Notes under the pieces: model-generated
Seen by the model: only the letters and a program-made list of their open reading frames with translations
The model's database searches: none
Told to the model about the DNA's origin: nothing
Part shown: in pieces, positions 625 through 47,571 of the stretch
Layout of the letters: each line of letters opens with the position of its first letter
Numbering within the stretch: position 1 is the first letter of the stretch
Virus record (IMG/VR): IMGVR_UViG_3300047462_000177
DNA length: 61,857 nucleotides
Source: a virus
Strand: one strand, 5' to 3'
Translations under genes and position numbers: made by a program

Positions 625-653
625 CGTTATGTCTCGCCTTCCTAACTTATTGA

Positions 654-788: not shown

Positions 789-789
789 T

Positions 790-971: not shown

Positions 972-1505
972 TTACGCAGTTTCGGCAATGGCTTCGAGCG
1001 CCACCGGAGGAACTTCAGCCGCAGCCGGCGCCGCATCTTCAGCAGGAGCAGGCTTCGGCTTGGGTTTGGTCGCCCCGAAGATGATCTGGTAGGGGATCGG
1101 TGCGCTGCCGGGAGTACGGAGTTCGTTGACCTCCTTAGTGATCGCAGAGCGCGTGGCACCCTCAGCGTACCGCTTCTTGATGTAGTCGACACGTGCCACA
1201 CCGTTCGTCAGCATGACTTTCGCACCTTCCTTCGCAGCCGGAAGATACTCAGGCTTGGGAACTTCTAGCGCCGCAGCTTCGGCTGCAGCCGTGGTCTCGC
1301 TCGCGGTCTCGCTCGCGGTGACAGGAGCAGTTGCGGGAGTGGCTTCAGCGATGGGAGCTTCGACATGGATATGAGTCGGCGCTGCCGGGGTGATGTGCTC
1401 GACATGAGCAGTGACTGGAGCGACATGAGCCGGAGCCTGAGCCGCCGGTGGAGTTTCCTGAGCTACAGTCTCCACGTGAGAGGTATCCTTGGTGTGAGCC
1501 TTCAT
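972..1505 (-). CDS. hypothetical DNA-binding protein, Ala/Pro/Thr-rich, with a C-terminal HTH-like 'YQ' domain
   Basis: The domain RVDYIKKRYAEGATRSAITKEV..IPYQIIF is paralogous to 15473..15667 and to the C-terminus of 10317..10853. Promoter at 1557-1586. Confidence 0.6.
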   Translation of the reverse strand: MKAHTKDTSHVETVAQETPPAAQAPAHVAPVTAHVEHITPAAPTHIHVEAPIAEATPATAPVTASETASETTAAAEAAALEVPKPEYLPAAKEGAKVMLTNGVARVDYIKKRYAEGATRSAITKEVNELRTPGSAPIPYQIIFGATKPKPKPAPAEDAAPAAAEVPPVALEAIAETA

Positions 1506-1556
1506 CTGGTGTATCCTTCAAAAAGAGCGCTAAGCTGTATGCTTGCTAACTCCTAG

Positions 1557-1586
1557 ATTATAGCTTAGACAATATAGGACAATCAA
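1557..1586 (-). promoter_or_regulatory. sigma70-type promoter (TTGATT-N18-TATAAT)
   Basis: -10 complement attata at 1557-1562; -35 complement aatcaa at 1581-1586; GGTGACC box upstream. Confidence 0.6.
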
Positions 1587-1645
1587 GTGAAATCTGATGG
1601 TCACCAAAAATCTCTTTTTCGAGACGCCCGCTCGAACTGTGGCCA

Positions 1646-1672
1646 GGCAGACGCCTGCGATGCACCGCGAGA
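1646..1672. repeat. GC-rich dispersed repeat family 1, copy A
   Basis: ggcagacgcctgcgatgcaccgcgaga is identical over 27 nt to 58492-58518. Confidence 0.85.
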
Positions 1673-1676
1673 ACCA

Positions 1677-1769
1677 TTAGAACGGGTTCTTGTGGGTGAC
1701 GATGATGTAGATGTACAGAGCAGCGGCACCTAAGATTCCTCCGGTACTTATTAGCAGTAAGGCATACAT
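1677..1769 (-). CDS. possible 30-aa hydrophobic peptide
   Basis: Hand translation gives MYALLLISTGGILGAAALYIYIIVTHKNPF. It is below the track threshold and has no clear SD. Confidence 0.25.
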   Translation of the reverse strand: MYALLLISTGGILGAAALYIYIIVTHKNPF

Positions 1770-1812
1770 GGTGTGTAAGCTTTCAGGTGATTAGGTATTA
1801 TGTTAGGTTGAG

Positions 1813-4533: not shown

Positions 4534-4573
4534 AGCCTGTCAGAGTAGAGTAATGCAGCTGCGGTTACGGGGC

Positions 4574-4909
4574 TTACCCGTACTGAGGACGCTGCTGGAT
4601 CTTGACCAGCTCATCAGCATTCGGCAGTCGAATGACTGTGTACGCTCTATTCTGACCAATAGGTGATACAGTTGTCCTCACCTCTCGGATGATCTTGCCT
4701 TCGCGGACGAGCTTCTCCAATACAGGACGCCACTCAACAGGCTTCACATGTGGTCCAATACCAGTGTGAAGCATGGTAGGCATCAGGATTGGGTACAGAG
4801 TCAGGACATGGATGATCCTCTTCTCCATTTCATCCATATCTTCGCCTGCCAGACGCTCGAACATCTGGTTTTTCTCGGCAGCCACTTTAACCGGATCCTG
4901 GTAGTTCAT
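4574..4909 (-). CDS. hypothetical protein, possible winged-helix
   Basis: 111-aa ORF. The C-terminal segment LEKLVREGKIIREVRTTVSPIGQNRAYTVIRL looks like a wHTH wing. Confidence 0.45.
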   Translation of the reverse strand: MNYQDPVKVAAEKNQMFERLAGEDMDEMEKRIIHVLTLYPILMPTMLHTGIGPHVKPVEWRPVLEKLVREGKIIREVRTTVSPIGQNRAYTVIRLPNADELVKIQQRPQYG

Positions 4910-4965
4910 TTGAGTATCCTCGTAAGGTAGGGTGTCAGAGTGTCAGAGTATGATGGTATCTGGTA

Positions 4966-4998
4966 GCTATTTGCGGCTATTTGCGGCTATTTACGGCT
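4966..4998. repeat. tandem repeat, 10-mer x3.3 (gctatttgcg)
   Basis: Sits between the stop of 4987..5367 and the start of 4574..4909. A second repeat, tgtcagag x2, lies at 4933-4948. Confidence 0.9.
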
Positions 4999-5367
4999 GA
5001 ACCGCATTTGCTCCATCTCGAGTTCGTATTCGACCTGAGACAGGAGCTCAGCACTGAGAACTTCTCGGCACTTCTCTGGGGAGATCCTCACCTGAGTGAC
5101 TTTCTCCCTTGTCATCTTGTAGACCTCGCCCGTAGCCTCCTTCTTGTCATCTAGACGTGCCTTCAAGGCTGTGCCTAGAAACTTGTCAGCCATTTCGAAG
5201 TGGGCTTTCCACTTTCGTATCCTCGCCACTTCATCGACCAAGGTCTCTGGCGTAGCATTTCCCAGTGAAGGGGGCACATACTTAGCTGGAGCCTCTGGTA
5301 GATCGATATTGGCAATCATGTAGGTAGCCACCTTCGCAGCTGTGGTCGTGCTCATTATGTTCTCCAC
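4987..5367 (-). CDS. hypothetical protein
   Basis: ORF with promoter 5378-5407. The likely start is the ATG at 5355 (MSTTTAAK) after GGAGAA. Confidence 0.6.
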   Translation of the reverse strand: MENIMSTTTAAKVATYMIANIDLPEAPAKYVPPSLGNATPETLVDEVARIRKWKAHFEMADKFLGTALKARLDDKKEATGEVYKMTREKVTQVRISPEKCREVLSAELLSQVEYELEMEQMRFSRK

Positions 5368-5377
5368 ACATTCTATG

Positions 5378-5407
5378 ATTATACTATAGGCATTCTAGGC
5401 TAATCAA
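5378..5407 (-). promoter_or_regulatory. sigma70-type promoter (TTGATT-N18-TATAAT)
   Basis: attata at 5378-5383 and aatcaa at 5402-5407. The upstream box ATAAAATTCCTC is shared with promoter 54955-54984. Confidence 0.6.
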
Positions 5408-5431
5408 GAGGAATTTTATAGTGCCTCTCGA

Positions 5432-5827
<396 letters not shown>

Positions 5828-6242
5828 ATGCGTTGTCCTCTGCTATGAACTTGATTGGGGGTTCTTCGTCCACATCCGCGTTAGGGTAATTGTGATTGTG
5901 ATCGTACTCTTCGCGGTATTTGTCTGCTAGTTCCTGAAGTAGATCTTTTCTCCTGTCTCCCTTCTCTCCTTTCGATGGGCGTAGCATCTCCACCAGCTGT
6001 TGGAGCTCAGTGAAGACATGAGCATATTGCAAGATCCTTTCCTGAATTAGGCTCATAGCTTGTACTAATTCATGATTGACCTCATGCGTGGACCAGCGCT
6101 TGCCGCAACTTGGGCACTCTTTACGCCTTCTTCGTCCGTATTCATCTGGTCTGGTATCCTTTACTATGGCTCCCATCTCCAGACAATATGGGCACATGTC
6201 TCCCTGAGACATTTTCTTGTGCTGCTCCTGTTGTTACTTCTC

Positions 6243-6521
6243 CTAGCGCTTCTTTAGGGCTAACGAGCCACGGGTGGCTTCATCTTGGTTGAAGTTCTGA
6301 TGTCGTTCGAAGTATTCCATTTTTCGCCTGGCAATGGTGAGTTCGTGTTCAGCACGTCGACGCATAGTGAAGTCCGTCTCATTCTTGGCGAAGAACTCCA
6401 GCATGAGCATGAGCATGTTATCATAATGCTTGAGCCAGAGCTGTGTCGCCCTAATCGAATGGTAAGACACTACTCTATTTGACCTTAATGGATTATCCTC
6501 GTACAAGATTAACGTTGCCAT
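6243..6521 (-). CDS. hypothetical protein
   Basis: 92-aa ORF downstream of promoter 6553-6582. Confidence 0.55.
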   Translation of the reverse strand: MATLILYEDNPLRSNRVVSYHSIRATQLWLKHYDNMLMLMLEFFAKNETDFTMRRRAEHELTIARRKMEYFERHQNFNQDEATRGSLALKKR

Positions 6522-6552
6522 AGAGTTGATCCCTTCATTTATCTACAACTAT

Positions 6553-6582
6553 ATTATAGAGATAGACTACAGTTGGTCTCAA
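6553..6582 (-). promoter_or_regulatory. sigma70-type promoter (TTGAGA-N18-TATAAT)
   Basis: attata at 6553-6558 and tctcaa at 6577-6582. The upstream CATTTTGACCA box is shared with 60144-60172. Confidence 0.55.
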
Positions 6583-6636
6583 TGGTCAAAATGAAGACCA
6601 GTCTTAGATTTCTTGTGGTCCAACACGCTGAGGTGA

Positions 6637-6661
6637 GGCAGACGCCTGCGCCGCGACGCGA
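6637..6661. repeat. GC-rich dispersed repeat family 1, copy B
   Basis: ggcagacgcctgcgccgcgacgcga is identical over 25 nt to 6890-6914. Confidence 0.85.
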
Positions 6662-6671
6662 ACATGGGTGG

Positions 6672-7427
6672 TTAGTTATTGTCCTCCTCTTCTGCTTTCA
6701 TGTCTTCTGGTGACATGTATTTGATGTAGGTCTCGCCAAAGGTTCCTTGACCAATGTCCAAGCAACCACCTGCAGCTAAGTCTGCGATCTCATGTGGATG
6801 GATTATGAGCACCTTTGTGGGTGTAGTCTTTTGTTCAGCCTGTCTTTTGGCAAGGATAGTTAAAAAACGGAGCTCTGGGGTGAATGTAGGGCAGACGCCT
6901 GCGCCGCGACGCGACAGGTCGACGCTACGGAGTTGAGTGCGAAGCAATTTAGCTGCATCACTGCCAATACCATCTTTTAGACCTATAGCATAGGCTTGAT
7001 TAACTAGATGCTGCAGCATTAACTGGATATCAAGTTCTGGTAAGGAGCAATTGGCTCCCCTCAGTTGCTGAGCGTAGACAGCTGCATGATCACGGACGTC
7101 GTCGACTTGAGGCGCCTCAGTGATTTTATAGTCCTCACGTTCAGCTACCTCTATGTAGAAGACTGAGTCGTCGTAGACTTGCTCACCATCATCGATCGCC
7201 TCCCAGATGTACTTGGGTTTGGACCCAAAGCCAAATGGCCACATAACCCTTGTTGGGTTCTGGATCTCGTACAGCTTGCAGATGTTATCAATACAATCCG
7301 CGATCTTTTGATGTGACTTGGCAGGCATTATCACAGGTACAGGGAAAGAGACCTCGATCTTGCTGATCTTCCTACGCTCCATTTTCCGTTCGCTGTCGTT
7401 GCTGTTGTCGTTCGAATTCGTGTTCAT
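6672..7427 (-). CDS. hypothetical protein (251 aa from the ATG at 7427)
   Basis: The track ORF extends to 7574, but the upstream gene stops at 7430-7432 and an ATG (MNTNSNDNS) follows 2 nt later. Repeat copy C lies in frame inside this gene. Confidence 0.6.
   Translation of the reverse strand: MNTNSNDNSNDSERKMERRKISKIEVSFPVPVIMPAKSHQKIADCIDNICKLYEIQNPTRVMWPFGFGSKPKYIWEAIDDGEQVYDDSVFYIEVAEREDYKITEAPQVDDVRDHAAVYAQQLRGANCSLPELDIQLMLQHLVNQAYAIGLKDGIGSDAAKLLRTQLRSVDLSRRGAGVCPTFTPELRFLTILAKRQAEQKTTPTKVLIIHPHEIADLAAGGCLDIGQGTFGETYIKYMSPEDMKAEEEDNN
6877..6914. repeat. GC-rich dispersed repeat family 1, copy C (inside coding sequence)
   Basis: 6877-6903 is identical to 58479-58505, and 6890-6914 is identical to 6637-6661. 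Confidence 0.85.
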
Positions 7428-7429
7428 GG

Positions 7430-7660
7430 TTACTTTGCCTTGTCGGTTATGGTGATAGTCACATCCCAGCCTAGACTTGTGCCTATACTGCGTATTCGCT
7501 CGTACCAGCCTGAAGCATTCCCTGTCGAGAGGATCTCTCCAGGGAACTGCTCCTGAGACAGGCACATAGCACACAGCAGATCAAATGCCTGAGCATCTGT
7601 GATCTGCTGCCCCGCCTTTGGCTGTGTTATTTTCTGCCTCTTTGGTTGCCAGAAGGCCAT
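7430..7660 (-). CDS. hypothetical protein
   Basis: 76-aa ORF tightly packed with its neighbours. Confidence 0.5.
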   Translation of the reverse strand: MAFWQPKRQKITQPKAGQQITDAQAFDLLCAMCLSQEQFPGEILSTGNASGWYERIRSIGTSLGWDVTITITDKAK

Positions 7661-7715
7661 GATTGTTATTACCTCTCCTGTTCCCTCTTCTTATCGTAGA
7701 CTTGCTCAATACCCA

Positions 7716-8282
7716 TTACACGTCTCCTTTCTGGTTAGGATGTATGAGGCTCTTGTCCATTTGATTGGTGGTGTTGTCTCCTTTTGAACGTACATGGAAG
7801 ACTTCACTTAGGAGCTTGTCAACAGTCTCATGCAACTCACTCCTAAGTTTGTCTTTTAGTGAACTGCCTATGTTGATGACGTGTTGCTTCATCTCCCCTT
7901 CGAAGTCTGCAGCAACAAGTTTAGTCATGATATATTCAGCTCGAGTTATGCTGCTGGAGTAAGAAGTGCATGGCTTACCTTGCTTATCTACCTTAGTATT
8001 CCAGTAGTCACCAATGAGGATTTCCAATTCCTTTCGGATGGTCGTAGTCTTACCGACTTGCTGACCAAAACTATCGACGCGGCAAAATTCGCGCTCGAAG
8101 CTCTGTTTGATTGCCTCCTCCACTGCTCTCGTGATCTGTGCGTTAGCGACAGTCTGGAATAGTTTGTCGATTCGTTCATCTACGGCATGCTGTATTCTCT
8201 TCCTCATATCAGCACTATGTATCATCTCGTCGGCGACTTTGCAGATGATGCCTTCTTCGATCGCCTCTTGGCTGAGTTCCAT
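7716..8282 (-). CDS. hypothetical protein
   Basis: 188-aa ORF predicted to be helical. Confidence 0.6.
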   Translation of the reverse strand: MELSQEAIEEGIICKVADEMIHSADMRKRIQHAVDERIDKLFQTVANAQITRAVEEAIKQSFEREFCRVDSFGQQVGKTTTIRKELEILIGDYWNTKVDKQGKPCTSYSSSITRAEYIMTKLVAADFEGEMKQHVINIGSSLKDKLRSELHETVDKLLSEVFHVRSKGDNTTNQMDKSLIHPNQKGDV

Positions 8283-8303
8283 GATAGACTCTTTCTGCTG
8301 TTG

Positions 8304-8648
8304 TTACTGTAGGTGTTGGAGGAGAAACTTACCTGGGAGCAGGTTCGCGTCCCAGATATTGAGAGCCTGGTAGATGCTGAATCCTGTGGAGAGGAACATT
8401 ACCAGCAATAGTGCCGATCGAAACGTGATTGGCGGGCGCCGAAAGCAGCGCGAAGCGCTTGGAACCCTTGGAATTGGAACCCTTGCTTTTGGACTTGGAA
8501 TTGCAACTTGCGCGCGTGTTATGCCTGCAAATACCGTAGTAGTGAGACAGGCTGCCTGGATCACTACTTGGCGACCAAGCATGTAGACCGCATGGAGATC
8601 ACCTGAGGACTTTGCCAGCAACGTTAGAGTAAGTTCATCAGGGCTCAT
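8304..8648 (-). CDS. hypothetical membrane protein
   Basis: ATGA start/stop overlap with 8645..9079 at 8645-8648. C-terminal hydrophobic segment ALLLVMFLSTGFSIY. Contains repeat family 2 copy E. Confidence 0.45.
   Translation of the reverse strand: MSPDELTLTLLAKSSGDLHAVYMLGRQVVIQAACLTTTVFAGITRAQVAIPSPKARVPIPRVPSASRCFRRPPITFRSALLLVMFLSTGFSIYQALNIWDANLLPGKFLLQHLQ
8447..8467. repeat. GC-rich dispersed repeat family 2, copy E (partial)
   Basis: agcgcgaagcgcttggaaccc matches the reverse complement of 42837-42857. Confidence 0.8.
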
Positions 8649-9079
8649 TTGAAGAGCCCTCCGTGAAAACTTGCCTGATGGTGTGATGACATCATCAGAG
8701 CCAAGAAGCCCAGAGTCAAGAAAGTACATGCCATGAACACGTAATAGCCTGCACCTTTCTTCCCTGCGCTTTTCTCCGCCTGTTTGATCACCATCCACGT
8801 TACGTCAGCTGCTGGCGTTTTCCACCCGTACTCGTTGGTTGAAAATAACGCCGCCAAGCGTTGTTTCTCCAGCTCTAGTAGTTCTTCCTTGGTATGCTGA
8901 ACATGCGTTCGTCGTACACCGCTAGACTTTGTATGTATCCGGCGTGCATATGTGTTGACGTTCTGTTGGACACTCTGAGCATCGAGCTGTGCCGCGATAG
9001 CCTGCTGCACATGTAAAGGCATCTTAGCTAAGTCAGCTGCTGTTAATGCATTCTTGCCCATGATCAGCTTAGACCCCAT
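8645..9079 (-). CDS. hypothetical protein with a C-terminal TM segment
   Basis: 144-aa ORF with a YYVFMACTFLTLGFLALMM hydrophobic tail. Confidence 0.55.
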   Translation of the reverse strand: MGSKLIMGKNALTAADLAKMPLHVQQAIAAQLDAQSVQQNVNTYARRIHTKSSGVRRTHVQHTKEELLELEKQRLAALFSTNEYGWKTPAADVTWMVIKQAEKSAGKKGAGYYVFMACTFLTLGFLALMMSSHHQASFHGGLFK

Positions 9080-9335
9080 CCTCTTCGATCGTCACTGTGA
9101 TCCTTATTGGCCATGTGCTATCACGCCGAGATAAGGGCATGTGACTCTTCTTGATAGCAAGTATACCTATGACTGCTTCCAGACCGCCTGCCAGCCCACC
9201 TGTCAGCATCATACCATCCCGAACCTCTTCGTACACTACTGAGTCTCTTCGTTCCTGACACAAGATGAACTCAACCTTCAATACATTTGACATCCTGCTA
9301 CTCTTTCTGTAGTTGCTGTGTGAGTTCATGCCCAA
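9069..9335 (-). CDS. hypothetical protein
   Basis: 88-aa ORF; the start is uncertain. Confidence 0.45.
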   Translation of the reverse strand: MGMNSHSNYRKSSRMSNVLKVEFILCQERRDSVVYEEVRDGMMLTGGLAGGLEAVIGILAIKKSHMPLSRRDSTWPIRITVTIEEDGV

Positions 9336-9402
9336 TGCATGTGTAAAGGCTACAAGCTACCATATGCAGCTTGAGCCCTTACAGATGTGTTGGTGGTTAG
9401 TG

Positions 9403-9603
9403 TTAGTCTTTCTTGAACCCTGGTAATCTGTAATACCCACGCAGACCTCGTCTTCGCCTGATACTTGTGCGTATGTAGTGCATGATGACGCTCGTTATGA
9501 ACGCGCTGATGATTATCGCAATCAGCATTGCGCATGCACCCCATAAGAACCAGCTTACTGGTGGATACATAGTGCAGTATGACAAAGATGCTTGTGATTG
9601 CAT
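9403..9603 (-). CDS. small membrane protein
   Basis: A single TM segment (WFLWGACAMLIAIIISAFITSVI) followed by a basic tail. Confidence 0.45.
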   Translation of the reverse strand: MQSQASLSYCTMYPPVSWFLWGACAMLIAIIISAFITSVIMHYIRTSIRRRRGLRGYYRLPGFKKD

Positions 9604-9615
9604 TGCTTTCTCCTT

Positions 9616-9990
9616 CTACCCCTCTAGCATCATCTTGACGAAATTCTGTGCCGTCTCCAGACTCCCAACGTAAATGCAGCCAAGTTGGAATCCGACGTAT
9701 GATGTCTGAATTGGAAATACTTCAGCTGGCCAGAGTATTTTGCCCAGTTTTCTGTGTCCGTAAGGTGCAAGCACTTCTTCACACTGTCTGAAATCCTCTT
9801 TGCCCGAAGGGCCGCGATCATATGAATGCCAGATCGCACCGTCGTTGTAGACTGTAAAGCACTCATCTTCGCATCTATACTGGTCTGACTTGTGATAGAC
9901 CTTCATAGCTGTATCCATAATGACTTTGTGCATTGTTGCCTTCAGATCAAAATCCGCACCGCGAGTGCGAAGGGTTGCTGAGTTCAGCAT
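9616..9990 (-). CDS. hypothetical protein
   Basis: 124-aa ORF. Confidence 0.55.
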   Translation of the reverse strand: MLNSATLRTRGADFDLKATMHKVIMDTAMKVYHKSDQYRCEDECFTVYNDGAIWHSYDRGPSGKEDFRQCEEVLAPYGHRKLGKILWPAEVFPIQTSYVGFQLGCIYVGSLETAQNFVKMMLEG

Positions 9991-9991
9991 G

Positions 9992-10189
9992 TTAGATATC
10001 CTCTTCCCTGTCCTCGTTGTGATCTATCCTGAGCATCTCGATGTGCTTGACGATTTGCTTCAACTTATCGTCTGGTAGCAGCTCCATGAGCTGTGCTGCC
10101 AAATCGTAGGGATCGTTGCCATCGACCAGATATTCTATGATCTTGTCATGTTGCTCATCTGTCAGTGTGTTGAAGTATTTATTCATCAC
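9992..10189 (-). CDS. small highly acidic protein
   Basis: 65 aa and rich in D/E. Promoter at 10222-10251. Confidence 0.5.
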   Translation of the reverse strand: MMNKYFNTLTDEQHDKIIEYLVDGNDPYDLAAQLMELLPDDKLKQIVKHIEMLRIDHNEDREEDI

Positions 10190-10221
10190 GAGCTCCTCTC
10201 CTCTCTGTTTCGTATGGTGTT

Positions 10222-10251
10222 ATTATAGCTGATGACAATCTATAGTCTCAA
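10222..10251 (-). promoter_or_regulatory. sigma70-type promoter (TTGAGA-N18-TATAAT)
   Basis: attata at 10222-10227 and tctcaa at 10246-10251. Confidence 0.55.
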
Positions 10252-10316
10252 TAGGCAAAATAAGGTAAAAAGATGAGCACTTAACTATAGGGGTTAGGTG
10301 CTCATCCCTTAGTTTG

Positions 10317-10853
10317 TTAGCCGTAGATACGCATCTGCGGCTCACACGAGCCTTCGTTGATCGCTATCTCCTCTGGCACCACATTCTGGCTTGTCGCCAT
10401 CTGCTGTACTGGCTGCATCTGCTTCTCTACAGAGTTGCGTGGACGCTTGACCTCCTGCGTGAGCACGTTGCGCACGTGCTGGTAGATGATGCCCAGATGA
10501 TTGGCGATCTGAGCGCGCCGAAAGCCGAGAGAGTTCATGTGACGAATCTTGGCGCTCTTCGTTGGCAGCGTATCGAGATAGGCCTGCAGCTCAGCACTGA
10601 CTGCCGACGCCTTTGGTGCGCTCGTTGTCTTGATTCCCTCGAGATTCGTGACTGCTGCCGCCTGCTGATCGCTTGTCGTGTCGATCTCGCCCCACCCTTC
10701 AGGTATCTTTGCGACGATGTCGCTGACGACGATGCCGTGCTCTTCTGCGTCCGCCATCATCTCGTCGACCAGCGCCTCCTGCTCGACCTCTTTCATGTCG
10801 ACTTTACGCAGATCAACGGTGAGGCCGTTGTCTTTGTGATTGTACTTACCCAC
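10317..10853 (-). CDS. hypothetical protein with a C-terminal HTH-like 'YQHVRNV' domain
   Basis: GTG start with AAGGAGA 7 nt upstream. The C-terminal SAKIRHMNSLGFRRAQIANHLGIIYQHVRNVL is paralogous to 15473..15667. Confidence 0.6.
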   Translation of the reverse strand: MGKYNHKDNGLTVDLRKVDMKEVEQEALVDEMMADAEEHGIVVSDIVAKIPEGWGEIDTTSDQQAAAVTNLEGIKTTSAPKASAVSAELQAYLDTLPTKSAKIRHMNSLGFRRAQIANHLGIIYQHVRNVLTQEVKRPRNSVEKQMQPVQQMATSQNVVPEEIAINEGSCEPQMRIYG

Positions 10854-10931
10854 GGTCTGTCTCCTTGGTTACTGTTAAGCCTATGAGTTATGTGCTCGAG
10901 AGACATCTGTGTTCTTCTCTCTTACATGAGT

Positions 10932-10961
10932 ATAATAGCGGATGACTCTAGAGGGTAGCAA
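10932..10961 (-). promoter_or_regulatory. sigma70-type promoter (TTGCTA-N18-TATTAT)
   Basis: ataata at 10932-10937 and tagcaa at 10956-10961, with a CATCATTTTACC box upstream. Confidence 0.5.
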
Positions 10962-10985
10962 GTGGTAAAATGATGGGCCGCGAAA

Positions 10986-11354
10986 TTAAATTTTGTCGAT
11001 ATTGTGATCTGGTGCGCTCGGGGGATCTTCAAATAGGCCTTTGTGTAATTTGGCTTTGAGCATCCGGAACTGAGTCTCCTTCAAGGACATGATCATATGG
11101 TCGATGTCATTGGTTAGGAGATTCATGATGCAGCCTATGGCATCTAATGCCTTCAGTTGCATATCGGGCGACATATCCTTCAGTTGTTGCTGGGGGTCTG
11201 AGGGAGCTGGTGCGAAGATCACTCTGATCGGCATTCCCAGTGTTCGGGAGTGCTGCTCAATAGCACTCCCGATCTTTTCCAGGAACTGATGTGACTCCTC
11301 ACCTACTCTCATGGCCTGTTGGAGCTCCTCGAACGCGTCACTGTTTGTGGGCAT
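10986..11354 (-). CDS. hypothetical protein
   Basis: The track start at 11381 is a TTG only 5 nt from the -10. The ATG at 11354 (MPTNSDAF) follows AAGGAA. Confidence 0.55.
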   Translation of the reverse strand: MPTNSDAFEELQQAMRVGEESHQFLEKIGSAIEQHSRTLGMPIRVIFAPAPSDPQQQLKDMSPDMQLKALDAIGCIMNLLTNDIDHMIMSLKETQFRMLKAKLHKGLFEDPPSAPDHNIDKI

Positions 11355-11385
11355 CTGTGTTCCTTTGTTTGAGTGCAACAAGATG

Positions 11386-11415
11386 ATTATATAATAGACA
11401 CTAGAAGGTAATCAA
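11386..11415 (-). promoter_or_regulatory. sigma70-type promoter (TTGATT-N18-TATAAT)
   Basis: attata at 11386-11391 and aatcaa at 11410-11415. Confidence 0.55.
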
Positions 11416-11464
11416 GTGTCCAAATGATGTGCGCTCAAGATTCTCTTTTTTGAGATTCGCCCCG

Positions 11465-11498
11465 TTGACGGGGGCACGAGTAAGCGCGAAGCGCTTGG
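11465..11498. repeat. GC-rich dispersed repeat family 2, copy F
   Basis: ttgacgggggcacgagtaagcgcgaagcgcttgg is close to the reverse complement of 42842-42876. Confidence 0.8.
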
Positions 11499-11540
11499 TC
11501 GGTTAAGACCTACCTGTTGTCACTTTGTCTTGGCCCTGCC

Positions 11541-12293
11541 TCAGTCAGCGCGCCCGGGCTTATCCTCTTTTGTTGGGCTTTGTGTGCCCTTTGGGCTTTG
11601 TGTGCCCTTTGGTTTATTTTCTATGCCTAGGATCTGTTCGTCGGTGAGGTCTGGCAAAGGGGCGAATGTGTCTGCGCTTTGCCTTTGCTGCTGGCGATAT
11701 GTGTTGATAAGGAGCAAATGGCTTGGAGACCATTTGCTCTCGTGACCAATGACCGTGCTAGGCTGATATATGGCGTTGTTCACTGTAGTGACTGGGATGT
11801 CTAAATCGTCGGCTATTTGGGAGGCTGGTGTTTTTTGTTTGCGACGACGTAGGATATCGTCAACCGCCTCTTTTTGGCGCTTGATTGGGATGTCCCAGTA
11901 AAGGTTGTCGATATGGCCGTTAGAGGGGTCATTGTCACGGTGCTTACAATACAGTTGGTTGGTTATGGCGTATTGGGTTTCGTCTTTGGGGCCGAACAGC
12001 ATGAGGATTGTACGGTCCCGCTGCATATTGTTTTGTCTGATGCCGTCTTTGTCTATGATGGGTATGACATAGTTCAATTTGCCTAATGGCGTTGTGCCTA
12101 AGAGCTCGTAGCCGCTTGGTAATGGGCGCATGTCCACGAACCAACCACCATCGCAAACAAGGTAGCAGCCCAACAGAGATGGGTCTGGGAGGTCTCTGTA
12201 GTTAAAGCCAAGACGCTTAAATGGCCAAGTGAGATGGGTCATAATCTCGCCGTTGTTGCTGCGGCGCTGTGAGTAGTCCCGTTTCTTTGTCAT
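11541..12293 (-). CDS. HNH-family homing-endonuclease-like protein with a C-terminal HTH
   Basis: CKHRDNDPSNGHIDNLYW is an HNH_3-type block, followed by TPASQIADDLDIPVTTVNNAIY. The C-terminal PKGTQSPKGTQSP is encoded by an 18-mer x2 repeat at 11575-11612. Confidence 0.6.
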   Translation of the reverse strand: MTKKRDYSQRRSNNGEIMTHLTWPFKRLGFNYRDLPDPSLLGCYLVCDGGWFVDMRPLPSGYELLGTTPLGKLNYVIPIIDKDGIRQNNMQRDRTILMLFGPKDETQYAITNQLYCKHRDNDPSNGHIDNLYWDIPIKRQKEAVDDILRRRKQKTPASQIADDLDIPVTTVNNAIYQPSTVIGHESKWSPSHLLLINTYRQQQRQSADTFAPLPDLTDEQILGIENKPKGTQSPKGTQSPTKEDKPGRAD

Positions 12294-12322
12294 GGTGTGT
12301 GGTGTGTGTGTGGTGTGTGTGC
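12291..12322. repeat. GT-rich microsatellite filling the whole 32-nt intergenic gap
   Basis: ggtgtgtggtgtgtgtgtggtgtgtgtgctgg. Confidence 0.85.
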
Positions 12323-12325
12323 TGG

Positions 12326-13504
12326 TCAGAGCATCTGCAGGTTGAAGTAATTGAAGGGTTTGTTAGGGATGTCGTTCCCGTTTTCGTCCCAAGGGATGGA
12401 GATACGTTCGTAGTAGTTGTCGCGAGGGCTTGGGTTGTCAATGTCTTGGAGCCTCTGTTTTTGGAGGAATTCATGGAAGGGCATTGTGCTTGTGTAGGCT
12501 TTGTACGCATTCTGGTAGAGCACTGTATCTGACTCGATCGTGATGTACAGCTCTAAGCGACGTCGGTGTGCTCTTTTCTGGTTTGGGTCTTGTTGTGCTT
12601 GATTGTCGTGCTGAGTTATTGGGAGAGCGCGATACGTGCTCATAAGCTGTTGGATCTTTGGATAGTTTTGCTGTAGATGGTCAAAAATGCGGTAGTAACC
12701 TAAGTGAGGTCTTGGCGAGATGCGGATGATGTCCATCATGATGCCAATGTTTACTTCGGAGTATGACATATTCGGGAATTCGTCGGAGCTTTCCAATTGG
12801 TTTGCACGTTGGTTGGTGTAGGGTTCGATCAATGAGCTCACTTTTGAGGGATCGTCGTAATTACCTTCTTGCCATGCCTCTGCAATGGATTTGTAGGGAG
12901 TCCTGTACTCTTCGCTGCTGTGAGGCTCGGTGTATAGACCACCTGGGATGATGTAGGTTTGGTTAAAGTAGTTGGTTAGATTGCCTGTTGTGGCGATGTA
13001 TATGATTTCCTTGCATATCTTACCAGGAATACCGAAGTGACGTGCGATTTGAGCTAACGGGACGCCATGTGTGGTGTGTGCCGTAGCAATCTCGAAGGCT
13101 GTATCGTGTTGGATACCCTGTAAAGGGTCGTTCCAGCTCAAATTTTCCAGGTTACAGAGTTTGAACCTGTCGCTTACCTTGTAGCTCACATGGCATTTTA
13201 CCATAGGTGGACCACGAAATGTGGTTAGGATGACACGCGCTAAGGGGACTTGTTTTGAGTCTATGGAAACTATCCGGTACCCACCGTGGTTTATTGTAGG
13301 TTTGACGCGTCGTGTCTGGTCGTCTCTGAATAGTTGGCTGTCTCGCAGGACCTCACCATCAGTTGAAGCCCAGTATGGCAAAGTGGTGTCAGGTATCTTG
13401 GCATACAGTAAGGGGTGTTTGGGATCTCGCTGCTTCTCCAGTTCTGCTCTGGTAGGGTAACCCGGTCCAACGGTGGGATCCGTATTGCTGTACATATAGG
13501 GCAT
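12326..13504 (-). CDS. NUMOD4/HNH-like homing-endonuclease-like protein
   Basis: YWASTDGEVLR..HGGYRIVSI (NUMOD4-like), CHVSYKVSDRFKLCNLENLSW (HNH_3-like) and VPLAQIARHFGIPGKICKEIIY (HTH). Confidence 0.55.
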   Translation of the reverse strand: MPYMYSNTDPTVGPGYPTRAELEKQRDPKHPLLYAKIPDTTLPYWASTDGEVLRDSQLFRDDQTRRVKPTINHGGYRIVSIDSKQVPLARVILTTFRGPPMVKCHVSYKVSDRFKLCNLENLSWNDPLQGIQHDTAFEIATAHTTHGVPLAQIARHFGIPGKICKEIIYIATTGNLTNYFNQTYIIPGGLYTEPHSSEEYRTPYKSIAEAWQEGNYDDPSKVSSLIEPYTNQRANQLESSDEFPNMSYSEVNIGIMMDIIRISPRPHLGYYRIFDHLQQNYPKIQQLMSTYRALPITQHDNQAQQDPNQKRAHRRRLELYITIESDTVLYQNAYKAYTSTMPFHEFLQKQRLQDIDNPSPRDNYYERISIPWDENGNDIPNKPFNYFNLQML

Positions 13505-13517
13505 TTGATTTAGGGCT

Positions 13518-13543
13518 CTGTTGCTGTTGCTGTTGCTGTTGCT
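13518..13543. repeat. tandem hexamer (ctgttg)x4 in the 5' leader of 12326..13504
   Basis: Read directly from the sequence. Confidence 0.9.
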
Positions 13544-13551
13544 ACAAGATG

Positions 13552-13580
13552 ATTATATAGGAGACTTTTGGGGCAATCAA
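13552..13580 (-). promoter_or_regulatory. sigma70-type promoter (TTGATT-N17-TATAAT)
   Basis: attata at 13552-13557 and aatcaa at 13575-13580, with a CATTTTGAC box upstream. Confidence 0.55.
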
Positions 13581-13798
13581 TAGTCAAAATGATAGTCGGG
13601 CCTAAAATTTTGTACATGATGAAGAAAAGAAATGTTTGTTTAGAACGGTTTGTGTGTTACTCTGCTTTGCGCTGCTATGCGCTGCTCTGCTCTGCTTTGC
13701 TATGCTTTGCTTTTAGTTTATACAAGTTTATGGATTGTTCTACTTTGTTCTACTTTGTTTGAGTAGAAAAAGGGTTACAAATTATGGTAAAACTGAGA

Positions 13799-14004
13799 CA
13801 ACAAGATGTTAAAATGAATAGCCTTTGCCTAAATTTGGCAATAATCAAAACTGTGATATCGCCCTCATTTTGGATGTAGTTCTTACCTCAATTTGGATGT
13901 AGGTTTTAAGTCCACATCCTCAATTTGGATTTAGTTCCTACCCTCAATTTTTTCGGCCAACAGTGCAGGGTAGGTAGTAGGATATAAATTTTAACATCTT
14001 GTTG
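13799..14004. repeat. perfect 17-bp inverted repeat (13799-13815 / 13988-14004) bracketing 3.5 iterons
   Basis: caacaagatgttaaaat pairs with attttaacatcttgttg. Iterons cctcaWtttggatKtag lie at 13863-13879, 13886-13902 and 13918-13934, with a partial copy at 13942-13950. The context is AT-rich. Confidence 0.85.
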
Positions 14005-14095
14005 AGCATGTTTGCTCAAAATCGATAACCCTTTTTTTTGACTACACATGTAATACAATGTAAAACAATGTGCTCACGGGCCTACACTTTGTATA

Positions 14096-14135
14096 CAAAC
14101 CGTTCCAAACCGTTCCAAACCGTTCCAAACAGTTC
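14096..14135. repeat. tandem 10-mer (caaaccgttc)x4
   Basis: Read directly. The last unit has one mismatch and abuts the first GGACTAGTCC. Confidence 0.9.
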
Positions 14136-14325
14136 GGACTAGTCCCCGACCGGCCCCTGTTCGGACTAGTCCAGACAGGTCCGAGCTGCGTTGGACCGAT
14201 TTAGTTTCACCGCAACCGGCCGCCCGCCAATAACAGTGTGGCAGGGCAGAGACCAGCCGGTTGGACCAGACGGACCAGACGGACCAGTCCAGACAGGGCC
14301 TTGGCCTTGGCCTTGGGACTAGTCC
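14136..14325. promoter_or_regulatory. GGACTAGTCC palindrome cluster I (3 perfect copies)
   Basis: Copies at 14136-14145, 14163-14172 and 14316-14325. Tandem arrays (ggaccagac)x3 at 14263-14289 and (ggcctt)x3 at 14297-14316 lie between them. Confidence 0.7.
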
Positions 14326-14411
14326 TAACATGGCACAGCCTATCAGACTCCTCTCATTGGACCAGTCGATCAGACTCTTTGGCATAATGGACCGGCCTAC
14401 CTCTTGCTCCA

Positions 14412-14474
14412 CAACAAAGGCGACAAAGTCAACAAAGTCAACAAAGGCGACAAAGTCAACAAAGTCAACAAAGT
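14412..14474. repeat. tandem 9-mer array x7 (caacaaagK / cgacaaagt) with 27-nt higher-order periodicity
   Basis: Read directly. An inverted partial copy cgcctttgttg lies at 14491-14501. Confidence 0.9.
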
Positions 14475-14728
14475 CAATTGCTGACCAAGTCGCCTTTGTT
14501 GTGCTCTGCCAGATGCATTGCAGTCTTACTCAACGAATCAGCTGCCCGACAGAGGAAGTATGGTAAATTGACCTCCGATGACACGAAGGTAGCCATTGCA
14601 CTGTAGTACCGTGACAGAACCGGATAGGCCCACACATCTGGCTCATTCGAAGTAACCTGATGTCTGTTCATAACTCCTGACCCCTGACCCCTGACCCCTG
14701 TTAAATGGTGCAGATCTCTCTTCTGCAT
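14474..14728 (-). CDS. questionable 84-aa ORF, possibly leaderless
   Basis: Its ATG at 14728 lies 6 nt after the -10 of promoter 14735-14764. The N-terminus is encoded by (ctgaccc)x3 at 14677-14700. No similarity was recognised. Confidence 0.3.
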   Translation of the reverse strand: MQKRDLHHLTGVRGQGSGVMNRHQVTSNEPDVWAYPVLSRYYSAMATFVSSEVNLPYFLCRAADSLSKTAMHLAEHNKGDLVSN

Positions 14729-14734
14729 ATCTAT

Positions 14735-14764
14735 ATTATATCATAGGACTATAGAGAAAATCAA
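14735..14764 (-). promoter_or_regulatory. sigma70-type promoter (TTGATT-N18-TATAAT) inside the coding-poor island
   Basis: attata at 14735-14740 and aatcaa at 14759-14764. Confidence 0.55.
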
Positions 14765-14807
14765 GATTCTTCTTGAGGTCAAATCATTAATAATTGTTAA
14801 TGTGAAC

Positions 14808-15026
14808 GGACTAGCCCAACGGACCGCTCCTCTCTCGGCTTCGCTCACCTACGACCGACCTCCCGCCAAAGGTGTTCAGGACCGACGGACTAGTCCTGCC
14901 TAGGCCAGACCTACTAGGCCAGACTGACTAGTCCGGACCTAATAGTTAGTACGGTCCGCCCGCAGGGACTAGTCCTGACAGGTCCGCGGCAATTGTCCTG
15001 CCTGGTCCCCGGTCCTGCCTGGTCCC
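14808..15026. promoter_or_regulatory. GGACTAGTCC palindrome cluster II (2 perfect and 2 one-mismatch copies) plus direct repeats
   Basis: Copies at 14808-14817 (1 mismatch), 14887-14896, 14925-14934 (1 mismatch) and 14966-14975. taggccagac x2 at 14901-14910 and 14915-14924. gtcctgcctggtccc x2 at 14995-15009 and 15012-15026. Confidence 0.7.
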
Positions 15027-15040
15027 TTAGGCGCATAAGA

Positions 15041-15062
15041 AAGGGCCCAGAAATGGACCCTT
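15041..15062 (-). terminator. intrinsic terminator candidate ending the HTH / small-TM transcript
   Basis: The minus strand reads AAGGGTCC-ATTTCT-GGGCCCTT (8 bp including one G.U), followed by TCTTAT. Confidence 0.5.
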
Positions 15063-15246
15063 CCTAGATGGACTAATCAATATACCCCGTGGTATAACCT
15101 ATTCTGACCTATTTTGTACCTGTGAGGTATTACCTCCCGACCTTCTACTTTAATGTGAACGTGAATGACCCGCGATAACGCACTGTTGATCATCCGTACG
15201 ACACATTCGTTGTCCTCATAGATGACCGCACCGTAAATAAGCTCAA

Positions 15247-15393
15247 TCACGACATCACCACAACCGCTATTGTTGCAACCAGAGCGATGACAACTGCGAG
15301 CACGACCGCCTGAGGCATCAGACCGACGTAATTGTCAATCGCGCTGACAAACGTATTGACCGGCGTTTCGAGTTGACCGTGTAAGCCATTCAT
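15247..15393 (-). CDS. 48-aa small membrane protein
   Basis: Hand translation gives MNGLHGQLETPVNTFVSAIDNYVGLMPQAVVLAVVIALVATIAVVVMS. GAGAG lies 7 nt upstream. It is below the track threshold. Confidence 0.4.
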   Translation of the reverse strand: MNGLHGQLETPVNTFVSAIDNYVGLMPQAVVLAVVIALVATIAVVVMS

Positions 15394-15420
15394 TGCTTTG
15401 CTCTCTGTCAGAGTTGATCT

Positions 15421-15470
15421 TTAGCTTAGCTTAGCTCAGCTTAGCTTAGCTGAGCTTAGCTTAGCTTAGC
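15421..15470. repeat. pentanucleotide array (ttagc)x10
   Basis: Lies directly after the stop of 15473..15667. Units 4 and 7 are tcagc and tgagc. Confidence 0.9.
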
Positions 15471-15472
15471 TG

Positions 15473-15667
15473 CTACGCCTTTTTCGTCGGCGTAATCTGC
15501 ACATTTCTCACGTGTTGATATCTGATATTCAGCTTCGCTGCGATTTGTGAGCGCGAGAGACCCTTCGATGTAAGCAGACGAATCTTTTCCGAAGTCGACT
15601 TACACGCATCGATCTCAGAATCGATCGTTGAAGCTACCGGCACATCATAGTTGAATTCGTTGATCAT
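15473..15667 (-). CDS. small HTH DNA-binding protein (first gene of the leftward arm)
   Basis: 64 aa. KIRLLTSKGLSRSQIAAKLNIRYQHVRNV is an HTH, with paralogous domains in 10317..10853 and 972..1505. Confidence 0.65.
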   Translation of the reverse strand: MINEFNYDVPVASTIDSEIDACKSTSEKIRLLTSKGLSRSQIAAKLNIRYQHVRNVQITPTKKA

Positions 15668-15689: not shown

Positions 15690-15747
15690 CAAGAGCACTA
15701 TTGCTCTTGTATGAAGATATTATAGTTTGATCTTAAGATCTAAGCTA
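15690..15747 (-). promoter_or_regulatory. leftward promoter with a palindromic operator and a leader hairpin
   Basis: -10 TATAAT (complement at 15719-15724) and a weak -35 TAGCTT (15742-15747). The perfect 12-bp palindrome GATCTTAAGATC at 15729-15740 sits in the spacer. Leader hairpin caagagca-ctat-tgctcttg at 15690-15709. Confidence 0.5.
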
Positions 15748-16037
15748 CTAATCTTTTCGCTTAGCTCTTATTCGCTTTTCGCTTAGCTCTTCTTTTCTCC
15801 TTCTGTTCTCTTCAATAAAAATAATATAATGCGAATCAGAAAATTTCGCAACAGCGAAAAGTGAATAGCTGCTCCGCTATTATCGCTGATGTACGAATGT
15901 GTTAATTTCAACGTCAAATGGGTCCGAAAATGCAGCTCCCGGAAAGGACACCAAAAATTACCTATTCCCTAAAAAAAGCATTAGGCACATCAGCGGCAGC
16001 TTAGGTACACATTAACAAAGATTAATAATTGGACGTC

Positions 16038-16068: not shown

Positions 16069-18105
16069 GTGGACAAAGGGACCCTAACAATTACCAATGT
16101 AGCTCCCATCTCTCAGCCCGTAATGCCTACAAGAGCCCAGGTGTTACGCGAAGCTGCCGAGCGCATTCCTAAGAACTCCTTGGGGCTGCCGGAGGGCTAC
16201 TATCGCTCAGATCTCCTTGACCCGCCAATGGTGGTAAAAGGGATCCTAGTCCCAACCGAGCTGTCAGCCCCCATCAACTACACCAGCCAGTCGAGCCAGT
16301 CGAGCCAGTCGAGCCAGTCGAGCCCACAAACAGCAAGCGCTGTCGCCGGCCCTGCTAGCAACAACTCAGGCTCACAAAAAGAGTGCGCGACGCTCGATCT
16401 ACCTGCCACCGAGCCCCCGTCAAATGCAGTGTGCTCAGGCACCACTGGCACCACTGGCACCACCACCACCACCAGCGAGGCATCCTATGTCGAGAGGCAG
16501 TCGGGGAGCCCGAACGCCGAAGGATCTCCGGTCCAGTCCGAGCTCGACGGCATCGGGCGAGGGAACCCAATCCAGATCAGGACGGGGCAGCCGAGCTCTG
16601 AAGGTAGTCAGGGGCAGCAGCAACCATCACACGGGCGGTCTGAAGCATCAGACAACCAGCACTCATGGCCATCACAAGTCGACAGCCGAGCTGGTCAAAC
16701 CGAGAGCCGGACAGGTTCACAAGCCCAAGGCCCCAACCCAGACGTAGGGGACCCTACATCTGCTCAGACACTGATCAGCGAGGATTACAGGCTTCCGGCA
16801 ATCGTATTCAATGAGCGTGTGCTACGCAATGCATATGTACCGTTGAACTACGATGAGGGATACCCTGTCCTACCTGATGGCAAGCCCTACTGGCAACAGT
16901 TGGACTTTGAGCCTCTGGATGCCTTCGTGGCATTCCAGGCTTATGTCGAGATGGGGTCCTACGGCTCCCGACAGCTCTTTCTCCTGCAGGACAAACAGTC
17001 CATGCAGCAGCGCATCCTTGTTGCGCGCAGCAGGATGAACCAGGAAGCCTCAAAGCTAGAGTCCAGAGGCGGCTACTACTACCCGGAGCCCAACGGCCCA
17101 GCAAGTGGCTATCCTAGCTCACACCAGAATAACACCCGTAACCGGCCGCCTGCTCTCTCCCAGGAAGAGCAGGACCGCCGAGATGAGGAAGATCTCCGTG
17201 AAGCAGAACGGGCGAAACAGTCTGCCTTGGATGGCAGTGGCTTCGTCCCTAACGTTACAGGTGGTGATGCACTAGAGCTCTCCGACCAGAAGAGGTCTAA
17301 GCTGTACGGGATGCTCCAAGCGGGAGCTGACCATGACACCTTGATTGAGTGGTACTACCTGTATCACTGGTCAACGCGTGCCTTAGCTCACGATCTCTTC
17401 TACGTGGATAGTATCCGCCGTGGGCGCGAGGCAATGGCCTTGCAGCTGGAGAACGGCCATCTGCAAGACAGCACGCAGATGTATCGCAGGCTCCAGGAAA
17501 TCTTCGACCCTGACAACCCGAAGTACCATGACACCAACGGTGAGAGCCGTTTCTGGCAGAAACTAGCAGGTAGCCCGAAGACAGCTACCGAGTTCTTCAA
17601 GACACTGATCCAGATGCAGCGCCTGAGCGTAGGCCTGTCCCAAGACAGTCCAAGTGTTGCTCTAGGCCGCTTTGCAGACCAGTCCGACGCCGAGCCATCC
17701 AGGGGTAGAGGCCGCCCGAAATCCAACGGCTCGGGCACCCACAGTAACAGTAACAGTAACAGTCTGCCCTCTAGCGCGCGGGGTCAGGCACATGACAACT
17801 TCAGCAGAGGAGCTATCAACCACGGTAACCAGTTGCGCCCTGACGAGCATGGCCGGATCAACCCGGAAGCCCATGCCCAGATAGGCGCCCAGACCAACAC
17901 GGCTAATGCGAATGTGAGTAGGCCACCTATGCGGGGGCTAGGTGGCTTCCAACCTGAGACGGCTACTACTAACACAGCATCGGGGGGTGCTGGGTCTCAG
18001 GTTGGACCGACTGGCGATGAGCGTGCAAGACGAATTGCTCAACTCCTAGATCTTGCACGTGCTCGACAAGCGGGCAGCACCCCACAGAGTCGGGGCTCTA
18101 CATAG
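16069..18105 (+). CDS. large low-complexity protein in the small-terminase position; function unknown
   Basis: It ends 1 nt before TerL. The GTG at 16069 lies 2 nt after the -10, so the ATG at 16123 is the more likely start. In-frame repeats (SQS)x4, (TTG)x3 and (SN)x3. GC-rich. Confidence 0.6.
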   Translation: MDKGTLTITNVAPISQPVMPTRAQVLREAAERIPKNSLGLPEGYYRSDLLDPPMVVKGILVPTELSAPINYTSQSSQSSQSSQSSPQTASAVAGPASNNSGSQKECATLDLPATEPPSNAVCSGTTGTTGTTTTTSEASYVERQSGSPNAEGSPVQSELDGIGRGNPIQIRTGQPSSEGSQGQQQPSHGRSEASDNQHSWPSQVDSRAGQTESRTGSQAQGPNPDVGDPTSAQTLISEDYRLPAIVFNERVLRNAYVPLNYDEGYPVLPDGKPYWQQLDFEPLDAFVAFQAYVEMGSYGSRQLFLLQDKQSMQQRILVARSRMNQEASKLESRGGYYYPEPNGPASGYPSSHQNNTRNRPPALSQEEQDRRDEEDLREAERAKQSALDGSGFVPNVTGGDALELSDQKRSKLYGMLQAGADHDTLIEWYYLYHWSTRALAHDLFYVDSIRRGREAMALQLENGHLQDSTQMYRRLQEIFDPDNPKYHDTNGESRFWQKLAGSPKTATEFFKTLIQMQRLSVGLSQDSPSVALGRFADQSDAEPSRGRGRPKSNGSGTHSNSNSNSLPSSARGQAHDNFSRGAINHGNQLRPDEHGRINPEAHAQIGAQTNTANANVSRPPMRGLGGFQPETATTNTASGGAGSQVGPTGDERARRIAQLLDLARARQAGSTPQSRGST

Positions 18106-43646: not shown

Positions 43647-43686
43647 TCGTAACTCCCCCGAGTTATGTGTGCGAGCCTGTGTTAAT

Positions 43687-43968: not shown

Positions 43969-43969
43969 C

Positions 43970-44828: not shown

Positions 44829-44876
44829 GGTGTGTTCCGATCAAGGTTGGTTTAGTTTAGGTGGTATGTTTAGGGG

Positions 44877-47546: not shown

Positions 47547-47571
47547 ATTTCGTCTGCCTCACTTGCCTCAC

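Follow-up and report, generated by a model that had tools for sequence, protein, structure and literature searches.

A conserved non-coding module, possibly a replication origin, in a clade of uncultured phages

The stretch of DNA analysed here, called the window, is IMG/VR record IMGVR_UViG_3300047462_000177 (61,857 nt), the complete or near-complete genome, about 61.9 kb long, of an uncultured phage. Between two of its gene blocks lies a gene-free stretch of about 1.57 kb (positions 13505–15076), here called the island. Sequence comparison indicates that the island is a real, conserved, non-coding DNA module that acts in cis. Its core layout recurs in at least ten distant relatives, so we read it as a DNA-level control site. 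Quite possibly the module is the phage's lytic replication origin, which is the function we tentatively propose. Transcription control is the main rival of this proposal.

Relatives for comparison were reached through homologues of TerL and of a 678-aa protein encoded upstream of it (L001, L016/17, L018/19, L020/21, L022, L024, L025, L030 and L032). Three more (L040/65, L055 and L072) were added by a scan for a conserved 17-mer. The closest relative is L024, with TerL 77% and portal protein 86% identical. Cultured relatives are all remote, the top match of the DNA polymerase being 37% identical, and a TerL-based scan of metagenome contigs returned distant relatives only. A blastn search of the island against 50,697 phage records gave zero matches.

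The same gene-poor stretch occupies the same place in nine complete loci (L001, L016, L018, L020, L022, L025, L030, L032 and L040/65). The layout is syntenic in L001, L016/17, L018, L020/21, L022, L025, L030 and L032, and the inverted pair described below is also present in L040/65 and L072. Eight islands measured in relatives are 0.56–0.88 kb long, against 1.57 kb in the window. In relatives that share the island layout, the 678-aa protein and TerL are only 30–65% identical; by this comparison the non-coding module appears to be conserved more faithfully than the neighbouring proteins. An insertion resembling a miniature inverted-repeat transposable element was considered and rejected, because the element is single-copy and its syntenic position is unchanged across 10 or more divergent phages.

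Along the direction of leftward transcription, the module consists of a terminator, a GC-rich block, an AT-rich element with inverted arms and a sigma-70-type promoter. In the window the predicted intrinsic terminator (15030–15065, minus strand) has a GC stem, a tetraloop and a U-rich tail, with a fold of −20.5 kcal/mol (z −2.7). It ends a leftward early mini-operon, made up of a helix-turn-helix (HTH) gene at 15473–15667 and open reading frames (ORFs) of 48 and 57 aa, and forms the right edge of the module. At this edge, 10 of 10 loci (the window and nine relatives) have a GC-rich hairpin followed by a U-rich tail.

The GC-rich part holds clustered short palindromes. All six genome sites of GACTAGTC are inside the island (14137–14974), where 1.0 is expected and 0 of 100 shuffles reach six; five of the six are the 10-bp palindrome GGACTAGTCC. 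The share of GAC(TA|CG)GTC sites that fall inside the island is 6/6 in the window, 3/3 in L001, 1/1 in L018, 3/5 in L020 and 3/6 in L022, and L025 has a lone GGACTAGTCC at the equivalent place. GGACC/CGGTCC is enriched 6.6-fold in the GC blocks of seven of eight phages.

The AT-rich element is the lowest or second-lowest 200-nt window in GC content in all nine loci compared. In the window this half of the island has a GC content of 0.32–0.36, lowest (0.32) at 13.7–13.9 kb, and the genome's lowest-GC 200-nt window starts at 13711. Its inverted repeat pairs a left arm at 13799–13824 with a right arm at 13979–14004 (23 of 26 positions complementary, with a 17-nt perfect core) around an AT-rich core at 13825–13978. 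Across relatives the arms are 17–64 nt long and the spacer is 154–186 nt, or 244–252 nt when taken from the outer arms. Beyond the element, at matching positions in the relatives, stands a promoter with a conserved GTCAAAATGATGG-like upstream element. Its counterpart in the window (13580–13552, minus strand; TTGATT-17-TATAAT, upstream element TATCATTTTGACT at 13594–13582) is predicted to drive an HNH-like gene (12326–13504) and forms the left edge of the module.

No ORF of 25 aa or more in 13505–15076 has a homologue in five relatives by tblastn. The initial annotation had described a larger region, 13505–15472, as poor in coding sequence, and had taken a conserved coding gene there as grounds against its interpretation. 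Conserved genes were found at 15077–15393 and none in 13505–15076. The two small genes of 15077–15393 are conserved in L024 with change biased to third codon positions, and the gene-free stretch was therefore trimmed. For the 48-aa ORF (15247–15393), differences from L024 fall 9/1/33 on the three codon positions, with 28 synonymous and 10 non-synonymous codon changes. For the 57-aa ORF (15077–15250), the 31 C-terminal codons are conserved in L024. The N-terminal 26 codons are absent there, so the real gene may be only about 31 codons long. The 3' part of this ORF (15085–15165) has about 71% DNA identity to L024 611–700.

The arms of the inverted repeat covary. An anchored alignment of eight phages over 70 columns has 75.7% of arm cells paired, compared to 63% after shuffling, and 0 of 500 shuffles reach the observed value. 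Both sides change in 23 of 35 arm pairs, and the covariation score of 0.398 compares with no more than 0.163 after sliding the partner. The outer twelve arm positions show no sequence similarity between phages, yet several phages have complementary bases there, so what is maintained is complementarity itself. It amounts to only 71–88% in most phages. Pairing maintained across a spacer of 150–250 nt is better accounted for by a single-stranded stage than by a cruciform.

Arm sequence is also conserved at its core. In seven relatives (L016, L020, L022, L030, L032, L040 and L072) the left arm reads GTTAAC-NNN-TTGAAATCATTA and the right arm TAATGATTTCAA-NNN-GTTAAC. The consensus for IHF, a host protein that bends DNA, is WATCAANNNNTTR (PMC10380432), and the relatives' arms fit either this consensus or WWTCAANNNNTTR. 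Across 252 kb, the elements contain 7 of 12 strict and 24 of 33 relaxed IHF-type matches, against an expectation of 0.5 for the relaxed ones. Arm conservation reaches well past the IHF consensus (TAATGATTTCAACGAGTTAAC). The arms of the window (CAAGATGTTAAAA) have a homologous position and a partly homologous sequence. L055 (five direct, two inverted) and L040 (two and one) have additional direct copies of the arm motif, and with these copies the arm core behaves like a candidate protein-binding site. The window's arms bear a likeness to the −10/+1 region in two family promoters (TATAATCATCTTGT versus TTTTAACATCTTGT), which was dropped as not significant (7 matches, 4.6 expected).

An 18-mer identical to the arm motif, AATGATTTCAACGAGTTA, occurs elsewhere, immediately following the CCA end in seven tRNA genes (L120, L128, L130, L138, L154, L160 and L164). 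These contigs are Alpha- and Deltaproteobacteria-type metagenome-assembled genomes. In at least two of them (L128 and L154, judged by eye) the C-terminus of a tyrosine integrase follows the 18-mer on the opposite strand. This post-tRNA position is where IHF sites occur in att arms, and in integrative elements the 18-mer may be a conserved motif of the att arm. Of the 54 genome matches to the 18-mer, about 20 are coding sequence of ribosomal protein L36 (MKVRNSLKSL) and were set aside as coincidence.

Covarying arms would also be expected of an RNA. The AT-rich element would then be the gene of a structured non-coding RNA of about 220–310 nt with a long closing stem, or the promoter at 14764 would yield a long non-coding transcript across the island. 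Compensatory changes preserve the closing stem, folds of the element beat shuffles at five loci out of six, with z between −2.5 and −6.3 (L018 does not rise above background, z −1.1 and +0.7), and a strong minus-strand promoter lies upstream in the window and in L001. However, the terminator sits directly upstream of the element in 10 of 10 loci, and five relatives (L016, L020, L022, L030 and L032) have no promoter-like site feeding it. Neither strand is consistently favoured by G–U pairs or by energy; the arms have 26 G–U pairs on the plus strand and 14 on the minus strand. The interior of the element has no sequence conservation, additional direct copies of the arm motif are present in L055 and L040, and Rfam, at both gathering and E-value thresholds, returned chance-level matches only. 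No tRNA or tmRNA was found in a search of the island. With a terminator upstream, promoters missing, no strand bias, an unconserved interior and no Rfam family, a DNA-level element is favoured, and we regard either kind of RNA as improbable.

Within the interior, the AT-rich cores of six phages are no more similar by Smith–Waterman score than shuffled sequences, so a consensus fold could not be attempted. A MAFFT alignment of whole elements was tried and was poor. Also unlikely in our view is that the AT-rich element with its covarying arms is a phage cis element of a new kind, active while single-stranded. It would act either as a snap-back origin, whose arms would pair after melting and keep a bubble of 150–250 nt open for a DUF3854-type primase, or as a previously undescribed structured RNA made by read-through of the terminator. 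If true, a single-stranded cis element would be common to a whole clade of uncultured phages.

The function we tentatively favour, a lytic replication origin, fits the combination of clustered palindromes and IHF-like sites flanking the most meltable DNA next to a promoter. From the conservation, anatomy, motif statistics and arm covariation above, we infer protein binding, melting and origin function as follows. The terminator would shut off the early HTH mini-operon. The short palindromes (GGACTAGTCC and GGACC), which are of the type used by dimeric DNA-binding proteins, would be occupied together with the arms, and the bound proteins would bend and melt the AT-rich core, predicted to be the easiest DNA in the genome to melt. 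The arms, once single-stranded, could pair and keep the bubble open for a primase-like protein and PolA. Flanking transcription may help, in this phage from the extra promoter at 14764. The module has been inflated in this phage from about 0.6–0.9 kb to 1.57 kb by a second GC block, the extra promoter and the ORFan cassette that goes with it, direct repeats inside the core and many microsatellite-like arrays. An origin in non-coding repeats has a precedent in the Vibrio satellite PLE, whose origin lies within a 2.7-kb non-coding repeat region between operons (PMC7145576).

Several observations weigh against an origin. Among the genes adjoining the island no recognised initiator was found. The 906-aa DUF3854 protein, encoded 9 kb away, has a short domain match only; PDB and NCBIfam searches with it were empty. 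No island contains a DnaA box at up to one mismatch, and genome-wide GC skew gives no usable origin or terminus signal (AT skew tracks gene direction). The window's own arms are two positions off the IHF consensus, and the direct 23-nt repeats of its core were not found in relatives. Pairing of arms some 150–250 nt apart is explained equally well by RNA, which also supplies a single-stranded stage. Finally, Foldseek likens the small HTH proteins encoded upstream to LuxR-type domains or sigma region 4 (all E > 0.2), which leans to transcription control.

Under transcription control the island would be an early-to-middle switch region, a function we consider somewhat unlikely. The terminator would insulate the early operon, HTH proteins would sit on the palindromes, and bending at the arms would let them reach the promoter at 13580–13552 and repress or activate it. 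The AT-rich DNA would be an extended upstream element. Consistent with this, the module always terminates in a strong promoter with a conserved upstream element, and small HTH proteins with an invariant recognition helix, LNIRYQHVRNV, are encoded in two to four copies per genome, one paralogue being in the operon just upstream of the island in most relatives. A structural model of the HTH protein was likened to sigma region 4 and LuxR-type domains, with no match significant. An IHF-type site placed between a promoter and its upstream activator sites is a known arrangement. On the other hand, the six other copies of the family promoter in the genome work without such an island, and the palindromes are 450–1400 bp away from the promoter. 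Complementarity of the outer, non-conserved arm positions is not required for protein binding or bending.

The genes with the LNIRYQHVRNV helix are at 15473–15667 and 10317–10853 in the window, and the family is present in L001, L016, L018, L020, L022, L025 and L040. The AlphaFold model has four helices and a predicted local distance difference test score (pLDDT) of 81; its sigma-4, LuxR and ParB-like Foldseek matches are non-significant. Three related phages have repeats of CGCTTAGC(T) in the divergent promoter region that separates the HTH operon from the 678-aa gene (window 15745–15790 and 15421–15471; L001 6280–6400 and ~6770; L024 1185–1380). These repeats are probably another operator family.

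The island could alternatively mark a genome end or a site of packaging or DNA entry, such as cos or pac, the boundary of a terminal repeat or a T5-like injection-stop region. IHF sites form part of lambda cosB. Contigs of relatives do end in or near the island: L024 begins inside it and L022 stops 500 nt away. In other large contigs the island is in the middle. The distance to terS/terL is 2.5 kb, with a divergent operon in between. In Caulobacter phage SR18 (Rauchvirus), a cultured relative by TerL, a 2,078-bp terminal repeat covers terL and most of terS. DnaA boxes are absent from the islands, unlike the T5 injection-stop region, and six copies of a candidate cleavage palindrome are hard to square with a unique cos site. 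We give such a site little probability. Among the roles suggested in the initial annotation, an origin or a regulatory region fits a conserved cis element, while packaging is weakened by the distance to the terminase genes and the SR18 terminal repeat, and a long non-coding RNA by the terminator, the promoters and the Rfam result.

It is highly unlikely that the island is an invertible switch, in which the inverted repeats would serve as recombination sites that flip the 150–190-bp core. Inverted repeats do surround a short AT-rich segment adjoining a promoter, and the 250-aa protein encoded at 11541–12293 has a weak resolvase-type HTH_7 match (E 0.004, below the Pfam cut-off). But no serine or tyrosine recombinase domain was found with Pfam and NCBIfam in the part of the ORFs that was scanned, and in most phages the arms are complementary to only 71–88%. 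The core also has the same orientation in independent assemblies (L016 versus L017, L020 versus L021).

What makes the window's island twice the length of its counterparts is a second GC block with three extra palindromes, an internal promoter, an ORFan with a hairpin and many arrays. The internal promoter has an equivalent only in L001 (4990–4961), where the second GC block likewise recurs. By comparison with the relatives, the 23-nt iterons, the microsatellite arrays, the second GC block, the internal promoter and the ORFan are outside the common module. Much of what is first noticed in this region, such as microsatellite arrays and direct repeats, is therefore not part of what is shared.

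Tandem arrays cover 22% of 13505–15472, compared to 2.2% of the remaining genome, and account for 12 of its 59 arrays; genome-wide this is the top window of its size for array coverage. The description of the region as almost entirely built from repeats was still an overstatement, since the remainder adds only dispersed palindromes and the inverted repeat. The three ORFs annotated at 14074–14412, 14261–14566 and 13568–13762 overlap tandem arrays and translate to repeat peptides, as the initial annotation had said. Its division into two halves also holds for the GC-rich side, where GC content reaches 0.62 at 14.1–14.3 kb and all six GACTAGTC sites are found. On the AT-rich side the low GC content, the 23-nt units and the inverted repeat were borne out, but the iterons turned out to be specific to this phage.

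From right to left, GC-rich block A (14800–15029) lies upstream of the internal promoter and contains GGACTAGTCC at 14887 and 14966, GACTAGTC at 14926, GGACC/GGTCC motifs and arrays at 14900–14945 and 14995–15025. The internal promoter (14764–14735, minus strand) reads TTGATT-18-TATAAT with a TG extension (TGnTATAAT). It had been proposed as a family promoter, and it is indeed one of seven exact TTGATT-N17/18-TATAAT sites in the genome, where 0.03 are expected; all seven are co-oriented with local genes. An 84-aa candidate ORFan (14474–14728, minus strand), absent from the initial annotation, has its ATG 7 nt past the −10 of this promoter and its stop at a strong hairpin. It has an alternative 65-aa start after AGGAG and contains a CCTGACC ×3.6 array (14676–14700). 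Among 5.8 billion proteins it matched only itself, and no homologue was found in relatives. The hairpin at its stop codon (14410–14503, minus strand) includes a CAACAAAGT ×7.3 array and 26-nt arms, with a fold of −50.1 kcal/mol (z −4.7); it is possibly a terminator or stabiliser.

GC-rich block B (14090–14409) has GGACTAGTCC at 14136, 14163 and 14316 and arrays of CAAACCGTTC ×4 (14096–14135), GGACCAGAC ×2.8 (14263–14287) and GGCCTT ×3.3 (14297–14316). Between the arms, the 23-nt unit CCTCAATTTGGATGTAG... is present in three to four copies at 13863–13955, namely three full units (13863–13942) and, by eye, a partial fourth at ~13941–13955. The AT-rich spacer to the left of the arms (13600–13798) carries CTCTGCTTTG ×5 (13660–13713) and TTGTTCTACT ×2.5 (13735–13759), neither of which was seen in the islands of relatives. 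A (CTGTTG)4.3 array (13518–13543, minus strand) is in the 5' leader of the HNH-like gene.

Microsatellite arrays are a habit across the whole genome of this phage. Several stand, unusually, in 5' leaders just before leftward start codons: (CTGTTG)4 at 13518–13543, (TTAGC)10 at 15421–15471, (AACCT)10 at 51880–51930 and (GCTATTTGCG)3 at 4966–4998. Such leader arrays might vary through slippage or have an effect on translation. In the gene of the 678-aa protein upstream of TerL, tandem arrays of AGCCAGTCG ×4.4 and GGCACCACT ×2.9 lie in frame at 16285–16474; these are low-complexity inserts, absent from shorter homologues of 437–589 aa. A TGTTGCTGT array is present at both contig ends (1–29 and 61820–61857). 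Because the two arrays are identical, the assembly is circular or was cut within a tandem repeat. No terminal repeat is evident in the window, whose contig ends have only this array in common.

Leftward genes occupy 1–15667 and 43191–61489. They encode a UDG–PolA fusion, an SNF2 helicase, a PD-(D/E)XK nuclease, a ligase, the 906-aa DUF3854 primase-like protein and FolE, QueD, QueE and QueC. Rightward structural genes at 16069–42524 encode the 678-aa protein (function not assigned), TerL and the portal protein. FolE (48921–49658), a QueE-like radical-SAM protein (49664–50431), QueD (50428–50952) and QueC (50980–51837) make up the pathway to preQ0, a 7-deazaguanine precursor, and the phage DNA therefore probably bears 7-deazaguanine modifications. 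A DpdA-type transglycosylase was not identified in the phage. Adjoining the island on the left, a pair of HNH-endonuclease-like genes (250 and 392 aa, weak PHROG matches) at 11541–13504 has an unusually strong positive GC skew of up to +0.46 and syntenic counterparts in L001.

The clade is known from metagenomes only, and the module offers a concrete handle on its origin or master control site. GGACTAGTCC, the inverted arms and the AT-rich core are testable motifs. The IHF-type sites point to Proteobacteria, which may aid host inference, and the anatomy of the module allows the same module to be recognised in other uncultured genomes.

Parts of this anatomy are found in well-studied systems. 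In appearance the island bears a striking likeness to T5-like injection-stop regions, which likewise keep their order among relatives despite poor conservation of the genes around them, and have an HNH endonuclease gene adjoining them, as the island does (bioRxiv 10.1101/866236). The T5 region lies within a 10-kb terminal repeat and has eight ordered DnaA boxes (bioRxiv 10.1101/866236). In contrast, the island has no DnaA boxes, no evident terminal repeat and no sequence similarity to it. The arms of the relatives fit the consensus of the IHF sites in att arms, lambda cosB and oriC (PMC10380432) and are candidate IHF-binding sites. The window's arms differ from this consensus at two positions, and arm conservation extends beyond the consensus. 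The origin of lactococcal phage c2 is non-coding, lies between divergent early and late genes and is transcribed into a structured RNA. Most relatives of the window phage, unlike c2, have no promoter feeding the element; the island is c2-like in being non-coding, repeat-rich and AT-rich and in lying near the divergence of the transcription arms, and a promoter reads into it in the window and L001. IHF sites flank the iterons of the lambda origin and the R6K gamma origin. Compared to these two and to the PLE origin, the island has no recognisable adjacent initiator gene and no DnaA boxes, it has direct iterons in this phage only, and its conserved feature is a pair of inverted arms 150–250 bp apart with maintained complementarity. 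What it has in common with all three is a gene-free stretch between transcription units, with repeated motifs of the protein-site type beside an AT-rich segment, IHF-like sites on both sides of the core (in the island's relatives) and a promoter alongside.

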